DNA of 64,000 nt from Mobula birostris. Its lineage: Eukaryota. A program made the translations under genes and the position numbers. The notes beneath the pieces were generated by a model. It had not been told where the DNA came from and made no database searches. It worked only from the letters and a program-made list of their open reading frames with translations. The stretch is from positions 60,352,505 through 60,416,504 of the forward strand of contig NC_092381.1 in the NCBI RefSeq assembly GCF_030028105.1, in the 5' to 3' direction. Shown one piece after another: positions 34,322 to 64,000 of the stretch. Position 1 is the first letter of the stretch, and each line of letters opens with the position of its first letter.

Positions 34322-34711
34322 TTACGTATCTACGGGTGTTGTGTCTTCCGTGAGTGGATCTGTTTGTGCTTCTTCCATCTCTGTTTCCTGGTTCTCGGAC
34401 TCCAGTGCAACAAAGATTTTTGTTTCACAACTCTGACAGCTACTGTCCTCTTCTCCCTGACTTGTTTCCTCTTTCTCAGTTTCTTCAGAATCCTCATTTT
34501 CTTCTAGTGTGAGTTCAAATTGGAATTTTTCAGTGGAACACTGTCCTTCTTTCTCTTGCTCATCAGGGGAAGGGGATGGGCTCTGGGGTATCATGCTCTG
34601 ATACCAATTCCTATTGTCCTCCAATGTGTCTAGAATATCCTGTGCATCAGGATGAACGAGATCTGCCCACGTTTCCCACAATGGATGTGCAATGTAATCA
34701 ATGAATCCAAC
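34322..34711 (-). CDS. pde4b: pde4b last coding exon ([18 protein letters not shown]...PQSP...EKFQFELTL...TPVDT*)
   Basis: 390 nt including TAA. ERK site PQSP, FQF docking motif and C-terminal PVDT as in PDE4B. Confidence 0.96.
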
Positions 34712-52990: not shown

Positions 52991-53063
52991 CCAAGAAATG
53001 AGTAATGGTGGGATCAACGATACAACTAAGGCTTATTCACTGGATCACAAGGCCAGTAGAAAT
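52991..53063 (-). other. Candidate 73-nt poison cassette exon of pde4b
   Basis: ttaactgcag|ATTTCTACTGG...CATTTCTTGG|gtaagt. After the UCR2 exon it reads DFYWPCDPVNKP then TAG. Confidence 0.35.
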
Positions 53064-53250
53064 CTGCAGTTAATATGTAAATCTCAAAAAAACATTTAAA
53101 TGACAGGGATGCATAGGACAATAATGCAAAAGGTACTAAAAGTAAGTATTTTCTGAATGGTGCAGCAATGCAGAGTAATTTCAGATTGTATTAACTATTT
53201 TAAAGGAAGCTCTTAATTGTTGAAACTATCAAATAATGTCTCTGCTTTTA

Positions 53251-53403
<153 letters not shown>

Positions 53404-54486
53404 TTATCACCAACTATTTTTATCAACCATTTCAATATCACTTTTGAATCAGATATTTTCATCAATTTATACATTCCTCAAGAGTGAAAGGAAATGTAAA
53501 TTTTCACATTTTTTGTCAGGTATTGTTTGTAATATTTTAACTGTGCTCTGTATAAACCTAGCTGATATTCTAAAATGCATTTTAAATAGGTTCATTGTTC
53601 TATTTTCAGTTATATAGGAATTGTTCCCAAATAATTGATGCTTCAAATTTTAAATATTAATTATGAATAAGGAAGAGCTTAGAACAGATGAAGTAGTGTT
53701 TGACTTGCATACAAAATTATTTACTTACACAATAAACAATGGTATTGTAATTATGTAGCTACATTGCTAATGAATTAGTTCTAAGACACAGCATTACGGG
53801 AAAACATATGTTAATCTTACCTTTAGCATTTATTTTAAAATGGTTGATAAAAATGGGTATTTAAAATTGTATTTAATCTATAGACCATATGGAAGCTCAG
53901 TTTTATAATTTCCCTAAACAAATAGCTGGATTTATTTTGATATAAAGTATGCAATCGTAAATTTAGTGAGATCATATATTAAATATTTTTCTGAATATGA
54001 TAGCAGCTTAATTCTCTATTACTCCATTATAAAATCTGAAATCTTATAACATATTTGTAAAGATATTTGTGATGACTTATAAAAGAATTGTAAACATGTA
54101 CTTTGGAACTCAGAATGTTAAATATTAATAAAAGAATAATAAAAGAACATACAGTATATTTGAAGATTTTTCTCATCCCCTTCACTGCACGGCTTGTTCT
54201 AATTATACATTATTTTTAAAAATAAAAACTTTTATATTCAAAATGTGATAGTGGAAATTCCTGGTCAGTCTCTTTTTGTTTCATTTATTTGTCTCTGCTC
54301 ATAAAGATAACATTTTAATTCTGATGAACTTTATTGATATTCATTTGAAATTAAATTAGCAAGTGCAATAAACTGTCAATATGGAAATAAAGTCTGAGGT
54401 TCAGAGGTTTCAGCATATTAACCTAAAGCCACGTAATCTCACAAAAAAAAGCAGTTTCAAAAGCATTTCATAATTAATTTACTCAC

Positions 54487-54534
54487 CTTGATATAACCCC
54501 AAGAAACAGACAGTAAATAATTTGCTTCAGGCAT
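54487..54534 (-). CDS. pde4b: pde4b super-short isoform first coding exon (PDE4B5/PDE4D6-type N-terminus MPEANYLLSVSWGYIK)
   Basis: Reverse complement reads gccaaaATGCCTGAAGCAAATTATTTACTGTCTGTTTCTTGGGGTTATATCAAG|gtgagt: 16 codons, phase 0, good Kozak context. It joins FKRMLNREL in frame and matches the known PDE4B5/PDE4D6 unique N-terminus. Confidence 0.93.
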
Positions 54535-54900
54535 TTTGGCCCAACAGAAGCAACAACAGCCGTGTACAAAATAAGTATCTAGCTGGTCAATTCCACACGC
54601 AGAGTTTCAACAGCAATGGTCACAATGCTTCATTAGCAGTTTAAATGTTTGAAGAAAATTTGTCCCAAAATTCAGTATACTCTTTCACTGACTGAGAAAA
54701 TCCAGTTCATGCAATAGTATCTTTCCCAGGATCTATCTGCGCATTTGCACTGACAGAACTGAGATAATGAAATCAGGGGGTCACATGGAACTGAGACCAT
54801 ACAAGTGTGTGCACTTCACAGCTCTTATGAATTATGAATAGCTTTGGTCTCTTCGCTAGAGGGGGTGGGGGTGTTACTTCATATTAGCCTCAGTATAAAG
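54535..54900 (-). promoter_or_regulatory. Putative promoter/5'UTR of the PDE4B5-type exon
   Basis: TE-free sequence directly upstream of a recognised first exon. E-box GTCACATG at about 54780-54787 and GT-box GGGGTGGGG at about 54862-54870. Confidence 0.45.
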
Positions 54901-55602
54901 GGGCAAAATATATCTATTGTCTGCAAGCTTACAGAATCTAGATCGTTAAAGCACAATATAGGAAATGACAGAACATGGAGGATGCCCAATACTTATGTAA
55001 ATTAGATGTCTTATTTATGTAAATCAAATGCAGATGGTGTCCCCATTTCAGTGGAGAATAGAATCTGATTTTAGCACCCTCCTACAGTACTGTCAGATAC
55101 TTTTCAACATAATGACAAATGATTAGGCATATTAGCAGTCTAAGATAGAGGTATGATCTGAACCAATCTTCTCAATTGTACAAAATAAGGAGAATAAAAA
55201 AGGTATTACAATGATTTACAATAATAATTAGAGTAATTCTATGAGGTTTAGATTTCTCTGTTGACACACAGAATATAAAATTAAGGTTTGTTATACTGAT
55301 GAATTCCATTTAGCTGTTTTTTGTTCAAGGAGTTATTAAAATTTAAAACAGATATATTTTCAGAAGCAAGTATTTTATTAAGAGGCTATTTGCTGATATT
55401 TGTACATGTGTAGGTTTTTAACTAATGTTATTTGAAACTATGGATATAGTGCCAGCAAGTAGAACCAAGTTACTGAGTGAGTGCTTAACAATGGTATCCT
55501 AATAAATCAGTTCCACCTTACTGAGATCACCCAGGCGAGACATTCCTAACTATAAACACAATGTTTTGTATGGTTTCATTAAACATTCTACAGAGAAACT
55601 AC

Positions 55603-55650
55603 CTTTCTCAGACAATGGAGAAAGTCCCAATATTGAAGAAACTGATACAT
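55603..55650 (-). CDS. Candidate alternative first coding exon of pde4b (MYQFLQYWDFLHCLRK)
   Basis: ATG TAT CAG TTT CTT CAA TAT TGG GAC TTT CTC CAT TGT CTG AGA AAG|gtagtt: 16 codons, phase 0, compatible with the UCR2 exon acceptor. Promoter-like motifs lie directly upstream. The donor is only moderately strong. Confidence 0.55.
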
Positions 55651-55699
55651 TGATGATTATTTAAAGCTTGTACTACAACCTGCACTCCCCATAACAGTT

Positions 55700-55795
55700 C
55701 TCCTTTAAATCCTAGATGAAGCACAGTGCCTGCATAAAAATGCTATTCACTCTGTGTCTGATTGGCTTTCAGCTCAGCTGCAGTGACATCACCTT
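55700..55795 (-). promoter_or_regulatory. Putative internal promoter: CRE-like, NF-Y CCAAT box and TATA-like element
   Basis: TGACATCA (55784-55791), AGCCAATCAG on the minus strand (55758-55767) and ATTTAAAGG (about 55702-55710), in promoter order and spacing upstream of the ATG at 55650. Confidence 0.5.
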
Positions 55796-56759
55796 GGCTT
55801 TCTCTGCACTGCTGATAAAGAGCATTAAAACATGGGAGGGCAGCTACATTAAGGAGCCCCCGAGAATCTTGAGCAAGTCAAAATAGCATCACAAATTGAA
55901 CATTAGAACTCCACTGGTATCATATCCTGTACTATTGCTCCAACTAGCTACCTAAAGAGTTCCTGCTATATATTACATTACCGATGAACAAAGAAGTTGC
56001 CTGGATTCTCATTTATTTTGCATAATAATTTAACTTGCATCTGCCACTGAATTCAAAGAAGCAATTGTTGTGAACACATAAACCAACACAACCTCTCCAA
56101 TGATCATGGCCAGTGTACCTTATGTAATAAGATTTAATAACTTCACTTTAATTTGTTTAAAGTTTGGTTTTAAAAAATCAATTGACAATTATTCTTATGA
56201 TCTCCATAGATTTTGCCTGCTTTCTGTGATCTCAAACAATAAAATAAAAAAAATTATGAGATTACGTACAGCTTCACAGGTGAAGGAGAAAGCTCATGGA
56301 GCTTCTTTTCAAGGGGTCACCAGGTATTAATCAAGAATGAAGAGAGGTATTTTTTTCCCCGCAGTGTCGTTACTCTAACCAAACTGCTCACCTAGGACTA
56401 TCTGTTTTAAATATGATAGTTTTCACTGAAAGGAGTCATTCAATTTGATAATACAACATTTCATTAAAACAACCATCATTAAAAATTTGACTTGGTCCTA
56501 GCAGAAGGTTTAACAGAGGCACATTTACAACATTTAAGACTACCCTTCAACATTACAAACCAATTCTGACATGTGTACATGCTAATGTTGAGGTTCCATT
56601 ATAGTACGTCAGAAAGGGCGCTCATCGGAAGACTGAAATGCAAATCACAATAGTGCCTGTGAAGAATACTGATCTATTGCCAGAGGCCAGTTTGCTTACA
56701 TTTAGGATTAAATGGGCAGATTTAATGCCGATAGCTACAGAGTGGTTAAATTACCGAAT

Positions 56760-57070
56760 AGCCATCTAGAGACCTCAGTTCTTGATCTAGAGACACAAAT
56801 TCTAATCCCTCAAACAGTAAATGGGGTTAGAATTCAAGTAATTAAGTGAATCTGGATCAAAAAGCTATCAATAATATTTGTGGAATAATTGTTTTGCCAT
56901 TTAGAACTCAGATGATTCACTGCTGTGCTTCAGGGAAGGAAATTTCCTGTCCAGACAAAAGAACTGTATGTTTTTGAAATCCGCCAATGTGGTTAATTCT
57001 TTATTACCACTTGGAAATAGCATGAAGGGCAGTCATGGATGGAAAATAAATGCCAGCATCATTCACATCC
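56760..57070 (+). mobile_element. Old degenerate SINE
   Basis: Contains ttcagggaaggaaatt...caatgtggttaattct...agggcagtcatggatggaaaataaatgccagc, resembling a common elasmobranch SINE as I recall it. Confidence 0.4.
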
Positions 57071-57633
57071 AATGAAACAATAGATATGGTAAATGTTTTA
57101 CAGCCTAGGGCTAATGTGACTGATGGGTCAATTTCACAAGAGTACAAAAAACCAGGGCATTCTTCCTGGAGTTGGAAACTCTGTTCATCCACACAGTCAA
57201 TAATCCTCCAAAGGTGTGAATGAACTGCTTCAAATTTTTCAAAAGATCATGTCACTAGATTATGATTAGGCCATTGCATCTTTCTTCAGTAACATACAGC
57301 GATTTGTAATAGAGCAGAGGTCTAATGAAATACCAGCTAAACAGTCATTCTTCACATTGAACCAAGACAATGAAGATCAACAATTCATATGACTCCAGAG
57401 GGAATCACAGAAATGCTCCATCTTGTCCTTACCCAATGACTGTAATTTCCAGTCGGAATCTCTGACAATACGTCGGTGTAATCCTCTAATTTGGCTTAGA
57501 ATTACGATGATGCATTGGTGTAAAAATTGCTTTACACAACTTCACTTTTATGAATTCCTCTCAAATGACAGAAAAATGCAGAGGATAGTTACTGTAGTAG
57601 TATTTTCCCTTCACAAGGATTTAACAGGCCCTT

Positions 57634-57937
57634 GGGGTGCCATGGTAGCATGGTGGTTAGCACAATGTCATTACAGCTTGGGGCAGTGGAGAATGGGAGT
57701 TCAATTCTGACATCCTCCGTAAGGAGTCTGTACGTTCTCCCCATGGAATACGTACATTTTCTCTGGGTGCTCTGGTTTCCTCCCACAGTCCAAAGATACA
57801 CCGATTAGTAAGCTAGTTGGTCATTGTAAGTTGTCTGGTGATTAGGTTAGGATTAAATTGGGGGTTAGTCAGCAGTGCAGCTTGAAGGGCTAGAAGGGGC
57901 TATTCTGCACTGTTTCTCTAAACAAAATAAAATAAAA
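57634..57937 (+). mobile_element. Full-length tRNA-derived V-SINE (HE1-like)
   Basis: A box TGGTAGCATGGTGG, B box GGAGTTCAATTC, V-domain gggtgctctggtttcctcccacagtccaaaga, LINE-like tail and (aaaat)n end. Confidence 0.85.
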
Positions 57938-58661
57938 TATTCCATTTCAATGCTGTAACTTTCATCCTTGTTGTTACAAAAAGAGTAAACTCAAGCATGG
58001 CTATGGCTTGAAAACAAATTCAAATTTATGAATAAGTTGTCAAAATCATCTTTGAGTGGTTGCATGTCAGATGTAAAAGACATCGTTCTAGACTGTTACT
58101 ACAAACCATGTATAGCAGCTTTAGATTATTCCATTCTCACTCAACCATTTTGTCCTTTTTCTCTTTTTTAAAGTTTGCTTTTGCCTGTTCTACCAAACTT
58201 AGAACATAAAATTTGTGTTCTTGTAGGGTCCTTCAAATAATAGCAGCTTATCAAATAGCTGGACTGTTAATAGTCCAAAGGTCTGTGTGGTCAGAGTCAG
58301 ATTCATAGCTTTAATTGTTGGAAACTGGGAACTTTGTCTCCAGAAGCTTAGACTGTTTACGTAAAAAGATACAGTATCTGAACAAATATCATATACGCAT
58401 GAAGTCACCAAAGTGGCAAAAAAAAACAGCATAAATGTAGAGAGCAGACAGACTTATTAAGAATGGTAAAGAAACATAAGAAGAATGATAGAAAGACAGC
58501 TAATTGGAATCCATTCCTCTACCTTTGATTTCTGTGAGGGACGATTTCTTCATCTGTGACTCATTGGTATATCTTTTTAGTTAGTAGGAATTGTTCCAGT
58601 GCTTTGCAAATCCTTTGTACTTTAATTACTCCTTAGTAATTAGGAATCTTTTTTCCAGATA

Positions 58662-59787
58662 TAGTGCCTTTTAAAATATTCAGCCCCCAACCCTTTGTAT
58701 ATATAAATGAGTACTACAACTAGAGGTGTTCATCAATTTAACTGAGAATTTTTATTTGTGAATCACATGCACCTTCCTTCCCCCCCCCCCACCAAAGTAG
58801 AGCCCACAAAACAGGGAAAAACTGTAAAGCGTGAAAAACTAAAAATTCAAAACCTGAAATGTGAGCAATTCAAAAGAATTCATCCCCCTTTGCTCAGTAC
58901 TTAGTTGAGCCATCTCTTGCAGCTAAGACAGCCAGTAGTCTTTTTATATAGGCTGTATTAGCTTTGCACAATGTGATGAAGCAAGATTTGCCCATACCTC
59001 CTCACACAAGACCTTCTTCCACATCTTTACAGCAACTTCTAAATGGTCATTTACCAAGTCCTTATGGGCAAAGATATATATTTTTTAAAGCCAAGGCTTC
59101 TTCCATAAATTCCTTTTTTTTTGCAAGGATTTGGAGACTGTGGAGCCATGAACTTCATCTCCAGTTGCAGCCACTGACTTCTGCAACACACTTCCAGTGA
59201 CTGTTGGTGTCACAGTAGCCTCTTTTACAAGTGCCATTCTTCTCTGATGACTAAGCTTATTGGGGCAGCCTGTTCTACTGTGGTTTCATATTTTTTCTGC
59301 TTTTTCATGATGGACTGGTCTGAGTTCTGAGGTGTGTTTGGTGCCTTTGAGATGATCTTGTACCCTTCCCCAGATTTGTGCTTCTCTATTATCATTTTCC
59401 TGACTTGCCTTGAATGCCCTTTTGGCTTAATCTGTTGAAAATCTACCATACTATTGAACCTTACAGACAGAGGGGGTATTTATTCAGGTGCTCCTCCAAT
59501 TTTCTACATAACAAATTATGTGAGTTGGTAAGGTAATATAAAGCATTCCACCTGAGGAAAGTTACCGTAGTAATTACAAAGGGGATGAATACTTTTTCAG
59601 TTTCACAATTTTGTTTTTTAATTGTAAGTAAATTTTTGGCAGATTTTGGAATTTTTCTTTTGATTTAACATGATGCTCAACATTTTGATTAGCTCAAAAA
59701 TCCTACTTTAATATATTTTAAATTTAGAAAATGAGACAGTAAAATGTGAAAATAGTTGTGGGGGCTGAATACATTTTCAAGGCACTG
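58662..59787 (-). mobile_element. Internally deleted Tc1 transposon of IR/DR type
   Basis: TA-flanked TIRs tagtgccttttaaaatattcagcccc / ggggctgaatacattttcaaggcactg. Inner repeats near 58875 and 59580. Transposase N-terminus HSRQVRKMIIEKHKSGEGYKIISKA. Confidence 0.88.
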
Positions 59788-60104
59788 TAGAAAACCACTG
59801 AGTTTTAAATCTGTTTTATGAATTTTGCTGGGGTGCCAATATTCCCAAAATTAAAATCATGAAGATCGAGTAAGGAGTAACTCCATTATCTTACACTGTG
59901 ACTCTTGAGAAATCAGCCCAGACGCTGTGGGCCAGCATCCTGTGTTCTATAGACTGTGTGTATGTTTGCAAAGCTGTCCTTTTAACTTCACTGATTATTG
60001 CCTGCCATTTACATTAAGTACTGAAGAGTGGCTCCCATTTACGACAAGAATCTGAACAAAGAATATTGGCTGAGCTTGGCAAAATAAAAAGATCCGATTG
60101 TCAG

Positions 60105-60485
60105 CAAGGAGGAGATGCTAAATCCAATCAGCACAGACCGCAGTCTCCCAGTGAGAAAGTCAAGGATCCATTTGCAGAGGGAGGTACAGAGGCCAAAGGC
60201 TTTGGAACATATTGATTAAAACTGAAGGTACGATTGTGTTGAACACTGAGCTGTAACTATAAATAACAGCCTGATCTAGGTATTAGTATTGTCCAGGTGA
60301 TTCAAGGCTGAGTGGAAGCCAAGGAGAATGCATCTGCTGCAGACCTATTGAGGCAACAAGCAAACTGCAGCAGGTCCAGGTCCCTGCTTAGGTAGGAGTT
60401 GATTCTAGGCAAGATCAACCTCTCAAAGCACTTTGTCACAGTAGATGGGAGAGCCACTGAGCGACAGCCATTGAAGCAGCTCACT
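60105..60485 (-). mobile_element. Rex1/Babar-type LINE RT fragment
   Basis: VALPSTVTKCFERLIL...DLLQFA...NRSAADA. Confidence 0.8.
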
Positions 60486-63484
60486 CTGCTCTCCCTGGGA
60501 AGTCAGTGAGGGGAGGGTCAGATGTTCCTGGCCCAAAGTACCATTCTATGGAAAGGAAATGCCTGGAAGCACCTCCACCTGAGGAAGGGACGATGGTGCA
60601 TGCAAATCCAAATAAAATTATGCTTAGAAACAATTGGAGAATTCCTGTCATTGGACATCATGACATCTCTTGTCAAATATGAAGCCTCCTGTTGATAGCC
60701 ACCTTAGTCTTCCTTAGTGATGAACCAATAATTTTTTTCCATGCTCACTATCACTTGGACAGAGGAGTGCTTGGGTATGATACAAAAGCAGTTTGAGGGG
60801 ACCCTAAAACATCTATCACTAAAAGAGGCTTAATATCAAAATTAACTCATTTCTAAAAGAACACATGACAAGGTGGAAATTCAGCAGGTGCCTATACTCT
60901 TCCTGTTATGGATGTATATATTGATAATAATATTATTAAAAGTAATTATTGCATAGAACCTATGCAAGTAACTCCTATGATCATATAACGATATCTATCA
61001 TCCATTCTCTTACACAGGACTGCCATTGTCCCATAAGAGACAGAATCAGGTCAGAATTAGAAAATCAAAATGGGTACCTAAAAGGAAATACTTGCCATCA
61101 GCAACCGGATATCGCCACAACTTATAAACTACTGGTCTGGTAGTTCATTCACTTTGCCAATAGATTAGGTACACTGACTCAAAGACCGTATATGAAGCTG
61201 GTTATAAAGGAGAACTAACAGGAATGTTTGTTGCCTAACCAGTGAGATTCACATGCATAGCAGCAATTTTGATATTCATATGAGATTACTTCCTAATTAA
61301 ATAAAACTGTTTTAACCTTGTATTTGCTGAGGCTGTGATTTATGAACATTTATAACTTTCCATGACATGCAAAGCATGAAGCAAGATGTTGTTTTATTCA
61401 TAATCAGAAAGGACTTTTCATGAGTAACAATACAATCCAACTTGGGTAACAGTATTATCCAATTTAAGCTGGGGCTATGAATGCACAGAACTGAAACCCA
61501 CAATGTTAAATTATGTGAGGTCAACTGAAGCTAATCCATAGGGGGAGCTATATCCATAAACTTCAACCATTACTTTCTTGGACTCCTGCTATATAATTTC
61601 CTATGAACGTTGTGATTGTGCCCCATTAAAATTTGAAAACGTTGAACCTATTAATGCACCCACAGACACTTCTAATTTCATCTGCAACTATTTCAATGCT
61701 ACTCTTGAGCGGCTGACATTATTGGTTTGATATTTTGACATTTTATTTATGCCTATCATCTACAGTATTTGGAGGTGCAAGGTGCAAATTATCATTATCT
61801 ATCAAACACAATTTAAGTAACTTGACAGCACTATCTGTCTTACTGCTCCAGTTATTACAAAGCTCAAGATAGAACACACCTTGTAAAATTGTTTCTGAAA
61901 TGTTGTAAAGCAGCATGACTAATCTTGGGCTTCAACTTGTCGGGAAAGAATCAAGTAGCTTGGTACAACCAGCAAAGCAGACAACTAAACTAACACTATA
62001 AAAGTTACACAAAATTGTTAAGGATTTAAATCATTTTTGAATGTATTAGTTTAAGCCAAAACAGTGGAATAAAATGGAATTGGAAAGGATCAAAGTTTAA
62101 AGAGTACCTTTCATTTCCCATTCAGGATATCCATATAGTTGTTGACGACATACAGGCATCATAGAATCAAATTTATGCACAAGTTGAAACAAATAGCAAT
62201 ATGATAGTGATCAGATATAGTCTTTCAATAATCTTAAGTAGCCATTTACATATGGGAGCACAATTCTCTTGTTTCCTTTGAATTATACCTGAAAGGAGCT
62301 GAAACCTTAGTTTAACTCTTTATCGAAAAGATAGCACCTGCTACATGTTACATTTTAGTGGCAACATATACATGTGTGCTCATATTTTTGAACTGGAACT
62401 CTAATATAAGAATATTTCAAAGAAGTAATCAGGAAATTCAACAACTTGAACAAATTTCCAGATGGAGAAGACAATCGGCATAAAATTATTTAAGAAACAA
62501 TTAGGCTCTGCATTTCTTTAGATGGATCAACAGAGGAAGGTCAACTGGCTTCCTCATCCAAAATAAATTAAGTTAGTTGTCACTACCTATTAGTATTTTG
62601 AGAAATTCTTTCCCCTCAATTCCCATTCTACAAACCTGTGTACCTGGACTGATTCAGCACGTTGTACATCATCTTCAATAGTCAACATATGACCTACCTG
62701 CATTCTTATTTACGCATCTGAACAATTTTCAAATGCAGTGCAAATTTCAGCTTAGAATACTTCTGAAAATGTATCCTTTCAAATCAGTTTAAAGGGAGTC
62801 AATGTCCTGGCAGATAAAGTAAGTTCTGTTATTTATACATGTATGTTTATATAGTTAATAGAAAAGATTAGTGTGGGAAGCTCTCAGTAGACTAGGGCAC
62901 GAACCTGCCATTTGGACTAACGTACAATCATTTAAATTCATGACCTGAATTGTCATCTGTAGTTATTCCCCTATCATTCAGCACATGCTCAAAACGTTTT
63001 CTCCCAAATGTAACTCAATTTATCACTACTTCAGATAGAATTGTGACATCAGTTGAAAAGCAAATGGAAAATATAATGGTTATCAAGATTATCAGCAGGA
63101 AACCTTGCCCTTTTTAACTGGGAATCACAACATCATGGCAGCATAAAGGAACTTCAGAAATTTAACATGAAGCAGACAAAGCAGTGAGCAAACACATCAT
63201 GAAAGTCAGGTTGTCCAAATCCGCATAAACAAATTTAGCATCAACGGAAAGATGGTTCCATCACAGATTCTTATGGATAAGATATCATTCCACGAATCTT
63301 TGGAAAACAATGTACTATATTTAGGAACAATCAACTAGTTTAAGGACATGTCAGAAATATTATTGCTTGTGGAAACAGATATTGTTGGTTGACAGACACT
63401 CAGACGTTATGCCAACAATGTAGCTTAATAATGAGCATCCACTTAAATTAATTCTTTAAGTAATGCCTTCGTGCAGATTGCTTA

Positions 63485-64000
63485 GACCGTAAGACATAGA
63501 AGCAGAACTAGGCCGTTTGGCTCAGTGAGTATGCTCCGCCATTTCATCATGGCTGATCCACCTTTCCTCTCAGCCCAGTCTCCTGCCTTCTGCCCATATC
63601 CCTTCATGTCTTGATCAATCAAGAATCAGTCAATCGCTGTCTTAAATATACATACAGACTTGGCCTCCACAGTTGCCAGTGGCAATGAATTCCACAGATT
63701 CACCACTCTTTGGTTAAAGAAATTCCTCTCATCACCATTCTAAAAGGACGCCCCTCTATTCCAAGGCTGTGTCCTCTGGTCTAAGACTCTCCCACCATAG
63801 GAAACATCCTCTCCACATCCACTCTATCAAGACCTTTCACCATTCAATAGGTTTCAATGAAGTCACCCCTCATTCTTAAGGATTCCAGCAAATACAGACC
63901 CAGAGCCATCAAATATTCTTCATTTGACAAACTGTTCAAACGCAGAAACATTTTTGCGAATACCCTTCGAACCCTCTCCAATTCAGCACACCCTTTCTAC
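63485..64000 (-). mobile_element. CR1 LINE 3' portion, continues past the window end
   Basis: Collinear with 19565-20090. Tail accgtaagacatagaagcag. Confidence 0.88.

Follow-up and report, generated by a model that had tools for sequence, protein, structure and literature searches.

We suggest that a CRE-like site and an NF-Y-type CCAAT box in an intron of the Mobula birostris PDE4B gene form a regulatory module serving a PDE4B5-type promoter about 1 kb downstream, and that the 16-codon open frame lying behind them is incidental; the reading is tentative, and we put its probability at about 0.45. The analysis shows the motifs and the spacing between them, places them upstream of an MPEANY exon that is spliced, and finds similar motifs in bird and teleost loci without the frame. 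The initial annotation had read the same segment as an unrecognised super-short isoform with its own promoter and a hydrophobic N-terminus, which on balance is unlikely. The features concerned, numbered along the 64,000-nt stretch of DNA that was analysed (the window), are:

55784..55791, minus strand: CRE-like site, TGACATCA on the plus strand and TGATGTCA on the gene strand
55758..55767, minus strand: NF-Y-type CCAAT box AGCCAATCAG, a perfect consensus match
55702..55710, minus strand: TATA-like sequence ATTTAAAGG, matching 6/8 consensus positions
55603..55650, minus strand: candidate 16-codon first exon MYQFLQYWDFLHCLRK, with its ATG at 55650 and the donor AAG|GTAGTT after 55603, phase 0

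The gene had been named as PDE4B, and this holds: over the last coding exon (34328-34708, minus strand) the sequence agrees 100% with the M. birostris RefSeq PDE4B protein XP_072129978.1, which maps on the window as nine constitutive exons from UCR2b (53379) to a stop near 34325, and the Mobula hypostoma protein differs from that of the window by one residue. A PDE4D identity, hinted at by EFISNT, was rejected on RefSeq names and on non-coding blocks shared with a bird PDE4B locus, with no tree behind the rejection. Because the window contains no UCR2a exon, we take 53380-64000 to be the 3' portion of the intron between UCR2a and UCR2b, the intron in which every super-short PDE4 first exon is described as sitting (PMC2929239). 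The candidate lies in this intron, as had been claimed, upstream of UCR2b (53379) and with UCR2a beyond the window end, which is the super-short placement as that source defines it. The intron is longer than 10.6 kb; conserved material was found only in the 2.5 kb adjoining UCR2b, the part open to comparison. An Rfam scan of 53000-64000 gave 0 matches. Downstream of the gene, positions 1-31000 of the window contain many decayed LINE-like and LTR-like reverse-transcriptase fragments in the ORF list. The known exons and the putative promoter against which the candidate has to be considered are:

53286..53379, minus strand: UCR2b constitutive exon, beginning FKRML, with an acceptor at 53379 common to all upstream first exons
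54487..54534, minus strand: MPEANY (PDE4B5-type) first coding exon, with its ATG at 54534 and the donor AAG|GTGAGT after 54487, corresponding to XP_062920235.1 in M. hypostoma
54754..54890, minus strand: ray-bird conserved non-coding block, likely the MPEANY core promoter, with 54800-54890 reached by 0/400 controls in three scorings

The MPEANY transcript is confirmed in a related species, in which contigs of run X1 join 54487 to 53379 at a depth of 39.9 and reach upstream to 54805. Its first exon resembles the candidate in intron, acceptor, phase 0, length of 16 codons and AAG|GT end; unlike the candidate, it is annotated in rays and sharks, is spliced in run X1 and is unchanged as far as teleosts and amniotes, and it combines a strong donor with an A at -3 and a promoter that is conserved. 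The block at 54754-54890 aligns to about -369 to -223 from the MPEANY ATG of a bird-like locus (L005), and this conservation makes it the likely PDE4B5 core promoter. Ray-bird conservation is strong near where the MPEANY transcript begins, in blocks ATTCATAATTCATAAG and CCCTGATTTCATTAT, the first of which we take to resemble POU-factor sites. The text available from PMC2929239 discusses the PDE4D6 promoter, but not this ray-bird block. A further 19-nt block at 55356-55374 (minus strand), near-identical between ray and bird (2-5/400 controls), might represent, weakly, a third element of the PDE4B5 upstream region.

In the proposed mechanism, a CREB/ATF-family factor is predicted to bind the CRE-like site and NF-Y the CCAAT box, and both factors would stimulate transcription at the MPEANY start some 950 nt downstream, where the 5' end lies near 54805. 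A rise in cAMP would thereby increase the amount of a super-short cAMP-degrading enzyme and complete a negative feedback loop. The PDE4B2 promoter, whose mechanism presumably involves a CRE, is similar in being an internal PDE4B promoter with proposed cAMP feedback, and differs in that PDE4B2 starts upstream of UCR2a, outside the window. A title cited in PMC5042479 gives this precedent as a cAMP-inducible intronic PDE4B2 promoter with a proposed feedback role. The literature listings yielded no paper on the PDE4B5 promoter and none tying a CRE or NF-Y site to it.

We considered how far the motifs depart from chance. All the letters of the CRE-like, NF-Y and TATA-like sites reported in the initial annotation are present, and the first two stand as consensus-like sites, the TATA-like one being at background, with a match as good (6/8) in 72% of 40-nt intron windows. 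The CRE-like site is one base from the canonical CRE, and the CCAAT box matches the NF-Y consensus throughout. Taken singly, the motifs are no more than chance would produce in 64 kb, with 0.88 expected and 2 seen for RRCCAATCAG and 4.95 expected and 8 seen for TGACRTCA. When mini-exons on both strands are considered together, however, a CCAAT box and a CRE-like site lie 40-250 nt upstream of 2/64, both of them under this one pair. In view of this count, the 72% TATA background and the seven mini-exons described below, the motif pair is unusual and the reading frame and TATA-like site are ordinary. The CRE-like site and AAGCCAATCAGA lie 15 nt apart. The CCAAT box is in forward orientation about 85 nt before the start site predicted by the initial annotation, which we take to be the usual position of NF-Y in a core promoter and which would fit a real isoform as well.

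Comparison with other vertebrates bears differently on the motifs and on the frame. A pattern built on the MPEANY exon returned five host-derived loci, covering 881-1929 nt upstream of the ATG: L005 resembles bird PDE4B, and L001-L003 appear to be teleost pde4b, pde4d and a second pde4b, the assignment of L003 to a pde4b copy being made by elimination since its contig ends before UCR2b. L004 was excluded from the conservation counts because its upstream part looks chimeric. In this locus (L004:458-1580) the sequence upstream of about -400 departs from its near-twin L002 and presumably reads as filamin-type coding sequence on the other strand, so that the contig is probably chimeric.

The MPEANY exon is kept in the one bird and three teleost loci. 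The candidate exon, by contrast, shows no trace in bird L005 or teleost L001-L003, none of which encodes a similar peptide. Its scores are reached by 156-328/400 GC-matched controls against L005 and by 86-229/400 against L003, and no alignment to L005, L003 or L002 was obtained in any scoring; a single 20-nt match to L001 is reached by 9/400 controls in one of three scorings. A bird AAAG|GTACGT site was rejected as a homologue of the 55603 donor (z 2.2, 3/60 shuffles), the bird stretch fitting 55474-55356 better.

The motifs fare better, with partial matches upstream of the MPEANY exon in two of the four loci, though these matches are short and some of the fitting was done once the sequences were known. 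In L005 the 9-mer GTGATGTCA occurs about 1.14 kb (about -1144) upstream of the MPEANY ATG, compared with about 1.26 kb in the ray, with a second short block aligned behind it; by shuffles the 9-mer is reached in 3/1000 and the 8-mer in 20/1000, and L005 has no CCAAT box. In L003 the CRE-like 11-mer is matched at 9 of 11 bases in a single place among 1918 positions, and exactly 15 nt further on comes the identical 12-mer AAGCCAATCAGA; the pair stands at about -670, about half the ray distance, and has a different CRE variant, and the CCAAT box alone is reached in 12/1000 shuffles. Neither the CRE-like nor the CCAAT motif is found in L001 or L002. The ray promoter segment as a whole is reached by 2-6/400 controls against L005, where its best local target shifts from -647 to -1155 with the scoring, and by 3-29/400 against L003. 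For the composite pattern the 0/1000 obtained is no fair p-value, because the pattern was fitted after both sequences had been seen. Taken together, this conservation is thin and gives moderate, suggestive support to a regulatory role of the CRE-like/CCAAT pair.

The alternative that best withstands these results is that everything here is coincidence, an AT-rich intron with, by accident, an octamer resembling a CRE, a CCAAT box and a short frame all inside 190 nt, which a scan of many windows picked out. Every element is singly at chance level in the window, the matches in other vertebrate classes are short and rest in part on post hoc fitting, and divergence from related rays (32/876 letters in X10, 12/235 in X2 and 13/362 in X1) is like that of other intronic pieces. 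Against this stand two independent loci, each matching at roughly 1-in-100 to 1-in-300 for motifs named beforehand, and the spacer in L003, which is exactly the same. We regard coincidence as rather unlikely, though it has to be taken seriously.

Under the regulatory reading that we prefer, the 16-codon frame is probably incidental, because its start context is weak, an upstream ORF precedes it, its peptide is ordinary, frames of this kind are cheap and no homologue was found. The initial annotation was accurate about the letters: the ATG, 16 codons and AAG|GT are all there, in phase 0 and fitting the UCR2b exon, and length and phase are those of the MPEANY exon, which sits 1116 nt downstream. 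Such an arrangement, an ATG with an open frame and a phase-0 donor compatible with the FKRML exon, is also found in six other frames of the intron, the ATG..AG|GTR phase-0 mini-exons in the 10,621 nt of intron within the window numbering seven with MPEANY included. The candidate donor is the second best of the seven and within the range of the real PDE4B donors here, and the candidate and MPEANY are the two of seven in the stronger donor class as defined in our analysis. Mini-exon ATGs lie 40-250 nt downstream of 238/2870 sampled positions in 35000-64000; a real regulatory element with an incidental frame behind it is therefore not rare. The candidate did not arise as a duplicate of the MPEANY exon, a possibility rejected on 17/48 matching bases, ATG and AAG included. 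Two further small frames lie beside it:

55657..55692, minus strand: upstream ORF of 11 codons, with its ATG at 55692 and stop at 55659-55657, in the same frame as the candidate
55517..55543, minus strand: second phase-0 mini-exon, of 9 codons, with the donor AAG|GTGGAA, under the same CRE-like and CCAAT motifs

The second mini-exon illustrates how readily such frames arise. The upstream ORF, which the initial annotation did not mention, has a strong start context (G at -3 and +4) and stops 6 nt before the candidate ATG, whose own context is weak, with T at both -3 and +4; a transcript starting near 55680 would exclude the upstream ATG, which would favour a real isoform. The upstream ORF begins MGSAGC, a start that we take to resemble those that are myristoylated or palmitoylated. 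A relative without the upstream ORF stop would have the candidate extended to 30 residues, and no protein reading through that stop was found in searches of short proteins (22-70 aa) and of 1.84 billion representatives.

The peptide itself was compared with 206 ATG-started intronic 16-mers, using hydropathy scales. It had been described as a hydrophobic and amphipathic, aromatic-rich targeting helix, and of these properties the aromatic content alone stands out, with five aromatic residues matched by only 4/206 controls. The Kyte-Doolittle mean of -0.26 is reached or exceeded by 142/206 controls and the Fauchere-Pliska mean is reached by 53/206; the moment of 0.47, reached by 45/206, is not above background, and a Cys occurs in 88/206. 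Such membrane modules have been described as amphipathic helices (PMC6022864).

The model for membrane targeting is PDE4A1 (TAPAS-1), a phosphatidic-acid-binding region with Ca2+-triggered membrane binding. Its first exon is joined at the FKRML junction, as in the candidate, and both have an aromatic-Trp-Asp triplet (WWD in PDE4A1, YWD in the candidate) and basic residues near the junction. In PDE4A1, however, one residue separates WWD from FKR (PMC7555651), whereas the candidate would have seven and does not place Trp-Trp-Asp directly before the FKR basic residues. The triplet is the sole support for a membrane anchor, and the candidate's best match to the shark PDE4A1-type N-terminus (YWD against WWD), a score of 19, is reached by 15/206 controls, which leaves the anchor reading unsupported by the sequence. 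Sharks already possess a true PDE4A1-type exon in PDE4A: two shark PDE4A-type records (P0181, P0184) carry the annotated N-terminus MPLVDFF...WWDQ.

The history of the known isoforms sets the expectation for a new one. PDE4B5 and PDE4D6 have one common N-terminus (PMC2929239), and mammals are described as having five PDE4B isoforms with PDE4B5 the only super-short form (PMC7291338), which is brain-specific according to the title of Cheung 2007 cited there. For the PDE4A1 type, PMC2929239 notes transcripts in mammals only and exon similarity in frog, lizard and fugu. Because sharks carry the PDE4A1-type N-terminus too, both known super-short N-termini predate the split between sharks and bony fish, and both are kept from sharks to amniotes.

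As the initial annotation had surmised, the candidate N-terminus is absent from the records and literature covered here. Cluster look-ups, in which one cluster of 41 shark and ray members contributed 15, gave 65 cartilaginous-fish PDE4B records; in these, UCR2b is entered from UCR2a in 59, from MPEANY in 5 and from another stretch in 1, and from the candidate in 0/65; nor was the peptide or isoform described in the open-access literature on PDE4B5, PDE4D10/11, promoters and elasmobranchs, subscription papers not being covered. It is absent from the RefSeq isoform sets of M. hypostoma (X1-X5), Hemitrygon akajei (X1-X5) and Rhinoraja longicauda (X1-X6), all three of which include the MPEANY form; the M. 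birostris record set says little on the point because it consists of four long forms only. Four pieces of the peptide, 4-6 residues each, occur in 0/333 stored proteins.

A profile of the peptide joined to UCR2b was calibrated on 207 stored and 10 simulated proteins; two others (A2 and A3) were discarded for giving the simulated product a low rank. With the retained profile the exact simulated product reached 80.7 bits, no stored protein but the profile's own scoring as high, and 7/10 simulated forms ranked in the top 8, the other three being 64th, 90th and 170th. With 2926/2935 candidates passed, no similar N-terminus was found among the best 120 of 2926; three proteins exceeded 80 bits, and the fourth real match had 78 bits compared with 80.7 for the exact product. 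Scoring was confined to cluster representatives of 80-2000 aa, so that a member inside a 90% cluster would be missed. The short-protein class (22-70 aa) contained no homologue of the candidate, the exon's own 20-aa frame is absent from the protein collection, and DNA patterns had 0 matches in viral and prokaryote collections. The sole match among 1.84 billion representatives, P0298, is a tandem-repeat protein and was rejected as unrelated. By these comparisons the N-terminus appears neither conserved nor annotated in other species.

Contigs from related rays weigh on neither side where the candidate junction is concerned. In those of X1, X2, X3 and X10 (presumed RNA, 4/15 runs) the sole splice joint listed is 54487 to 53379, although the diluting 2.6-kb query could miss a candidate-only run: by our estimate, a run limited to UCR2b plus the candidate exon would have about 12/275 words in common with that query, below the one-twentieth bar. 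The candidate exon is uncovered in the X1 and X3 contigs, presumed-RNA sets of related species for which this query is weak for the candidate junction. An X2 contig at 55589-55823 (depth 2) continues beyond the donor for 26 genomic letters, fewer than the 31 required, and is possibly DNA; an X1 contig at 55694-56055 (depth 5.7) ends near the predicted start, but X1 has other intronic patches as well, and we count neither contig as evidence. Over 54983-55861, X10 has 32 other letters in 876 and 11 gap letters at 55225, 55461, 55490 and 55588, with no gap within the candidate exon or motifs and none in 55589-55861, and over 55589-55823 X2 has 12 other letters in 235 and no gap; these divergences and that of X1 (13/362) are totals per contig. 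Zero indels in the candidate stretch is not significant, because only about 1-2 events would be expected, by our estimate, over so short a stretch.

We are sceptical of a genuine additional super-short first exon driven by a CRE/NF-Y promoter of its own, confined to rays or cartilaginous fishes and expressed weakly or in a tissue not sampled, and consider it unlikely. Its product might be a monomeric PDE4B without UCR1, carrying an aromatic N-terminal tag that possibly targets membranes or a partner. Intron, phase and length are right (PMC2929239), the donor falls within the gene's real range, the motif pair is rare near mini-exons, with a forward CCAAT box at core-promoter distance, the aromatic content is exceptional, and neither X10 (55589-55861) nor X2 (55589-55823) has an indel; moreover, PDE4 first exons are argued to come into being by sequence drift in single lineages (PMC2929239). 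Weighing against it are its absence from three ray RefSeq sets that include MPEANY and from the best 120 of 2926 profile matches, the missing counterpart in four bony-vertebrate loci, in contrast to the two known super-short N-termini, which persist from sharks through to amniotes, the weak start context, the background-level TATA and moment, and the shortness of the indel-free stretch. Equally doubtful is the more elaborate proposal that, in rays or cartilaginous fishes, an old CRE/NF-Y element lying upstream of the PDE4B5 promoter turned into an independent promoter and acquired the 16-codon exon, which would give a third kind of super-short N-terminus with an aromatic membrane tag.

Least probable by a wide measure is a minor promoter from which the 55603 donor is used and translation from 55650 is poor, ribosomes starting at the upstream ORF or scanning past to yield a truncated super-short enzyme from a Met inside UCR2b, or none; the strong upstream and weak main ATG, the records of other PDE4 genes starting at an internal Met (P0023, P0024, P0046, P0177) and the fact that it needs no peptide conservation would suit it, but 0/65 cartilaginous-fish PDE4B records start at an internal UCR2b Met and there is no direct sign that the 55603 donor is used.

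These readings differ in what they would mean for the PDE4 family. If the isoform were real, a gene family with many N-termini on record would gain a further, lineage-restricted one, and specialists in PDE4 and exon evolution would have a clear example of a first exon born at a regulatory element, though no new principle. A captured exon would stand beside MPEANY and MPLVDFF as a targeting exon that originated at an enhancer. If, as in the reading that we favour, the motifs alone are real, they would constitute a testable cAMP-feedback element for PDE4B5.
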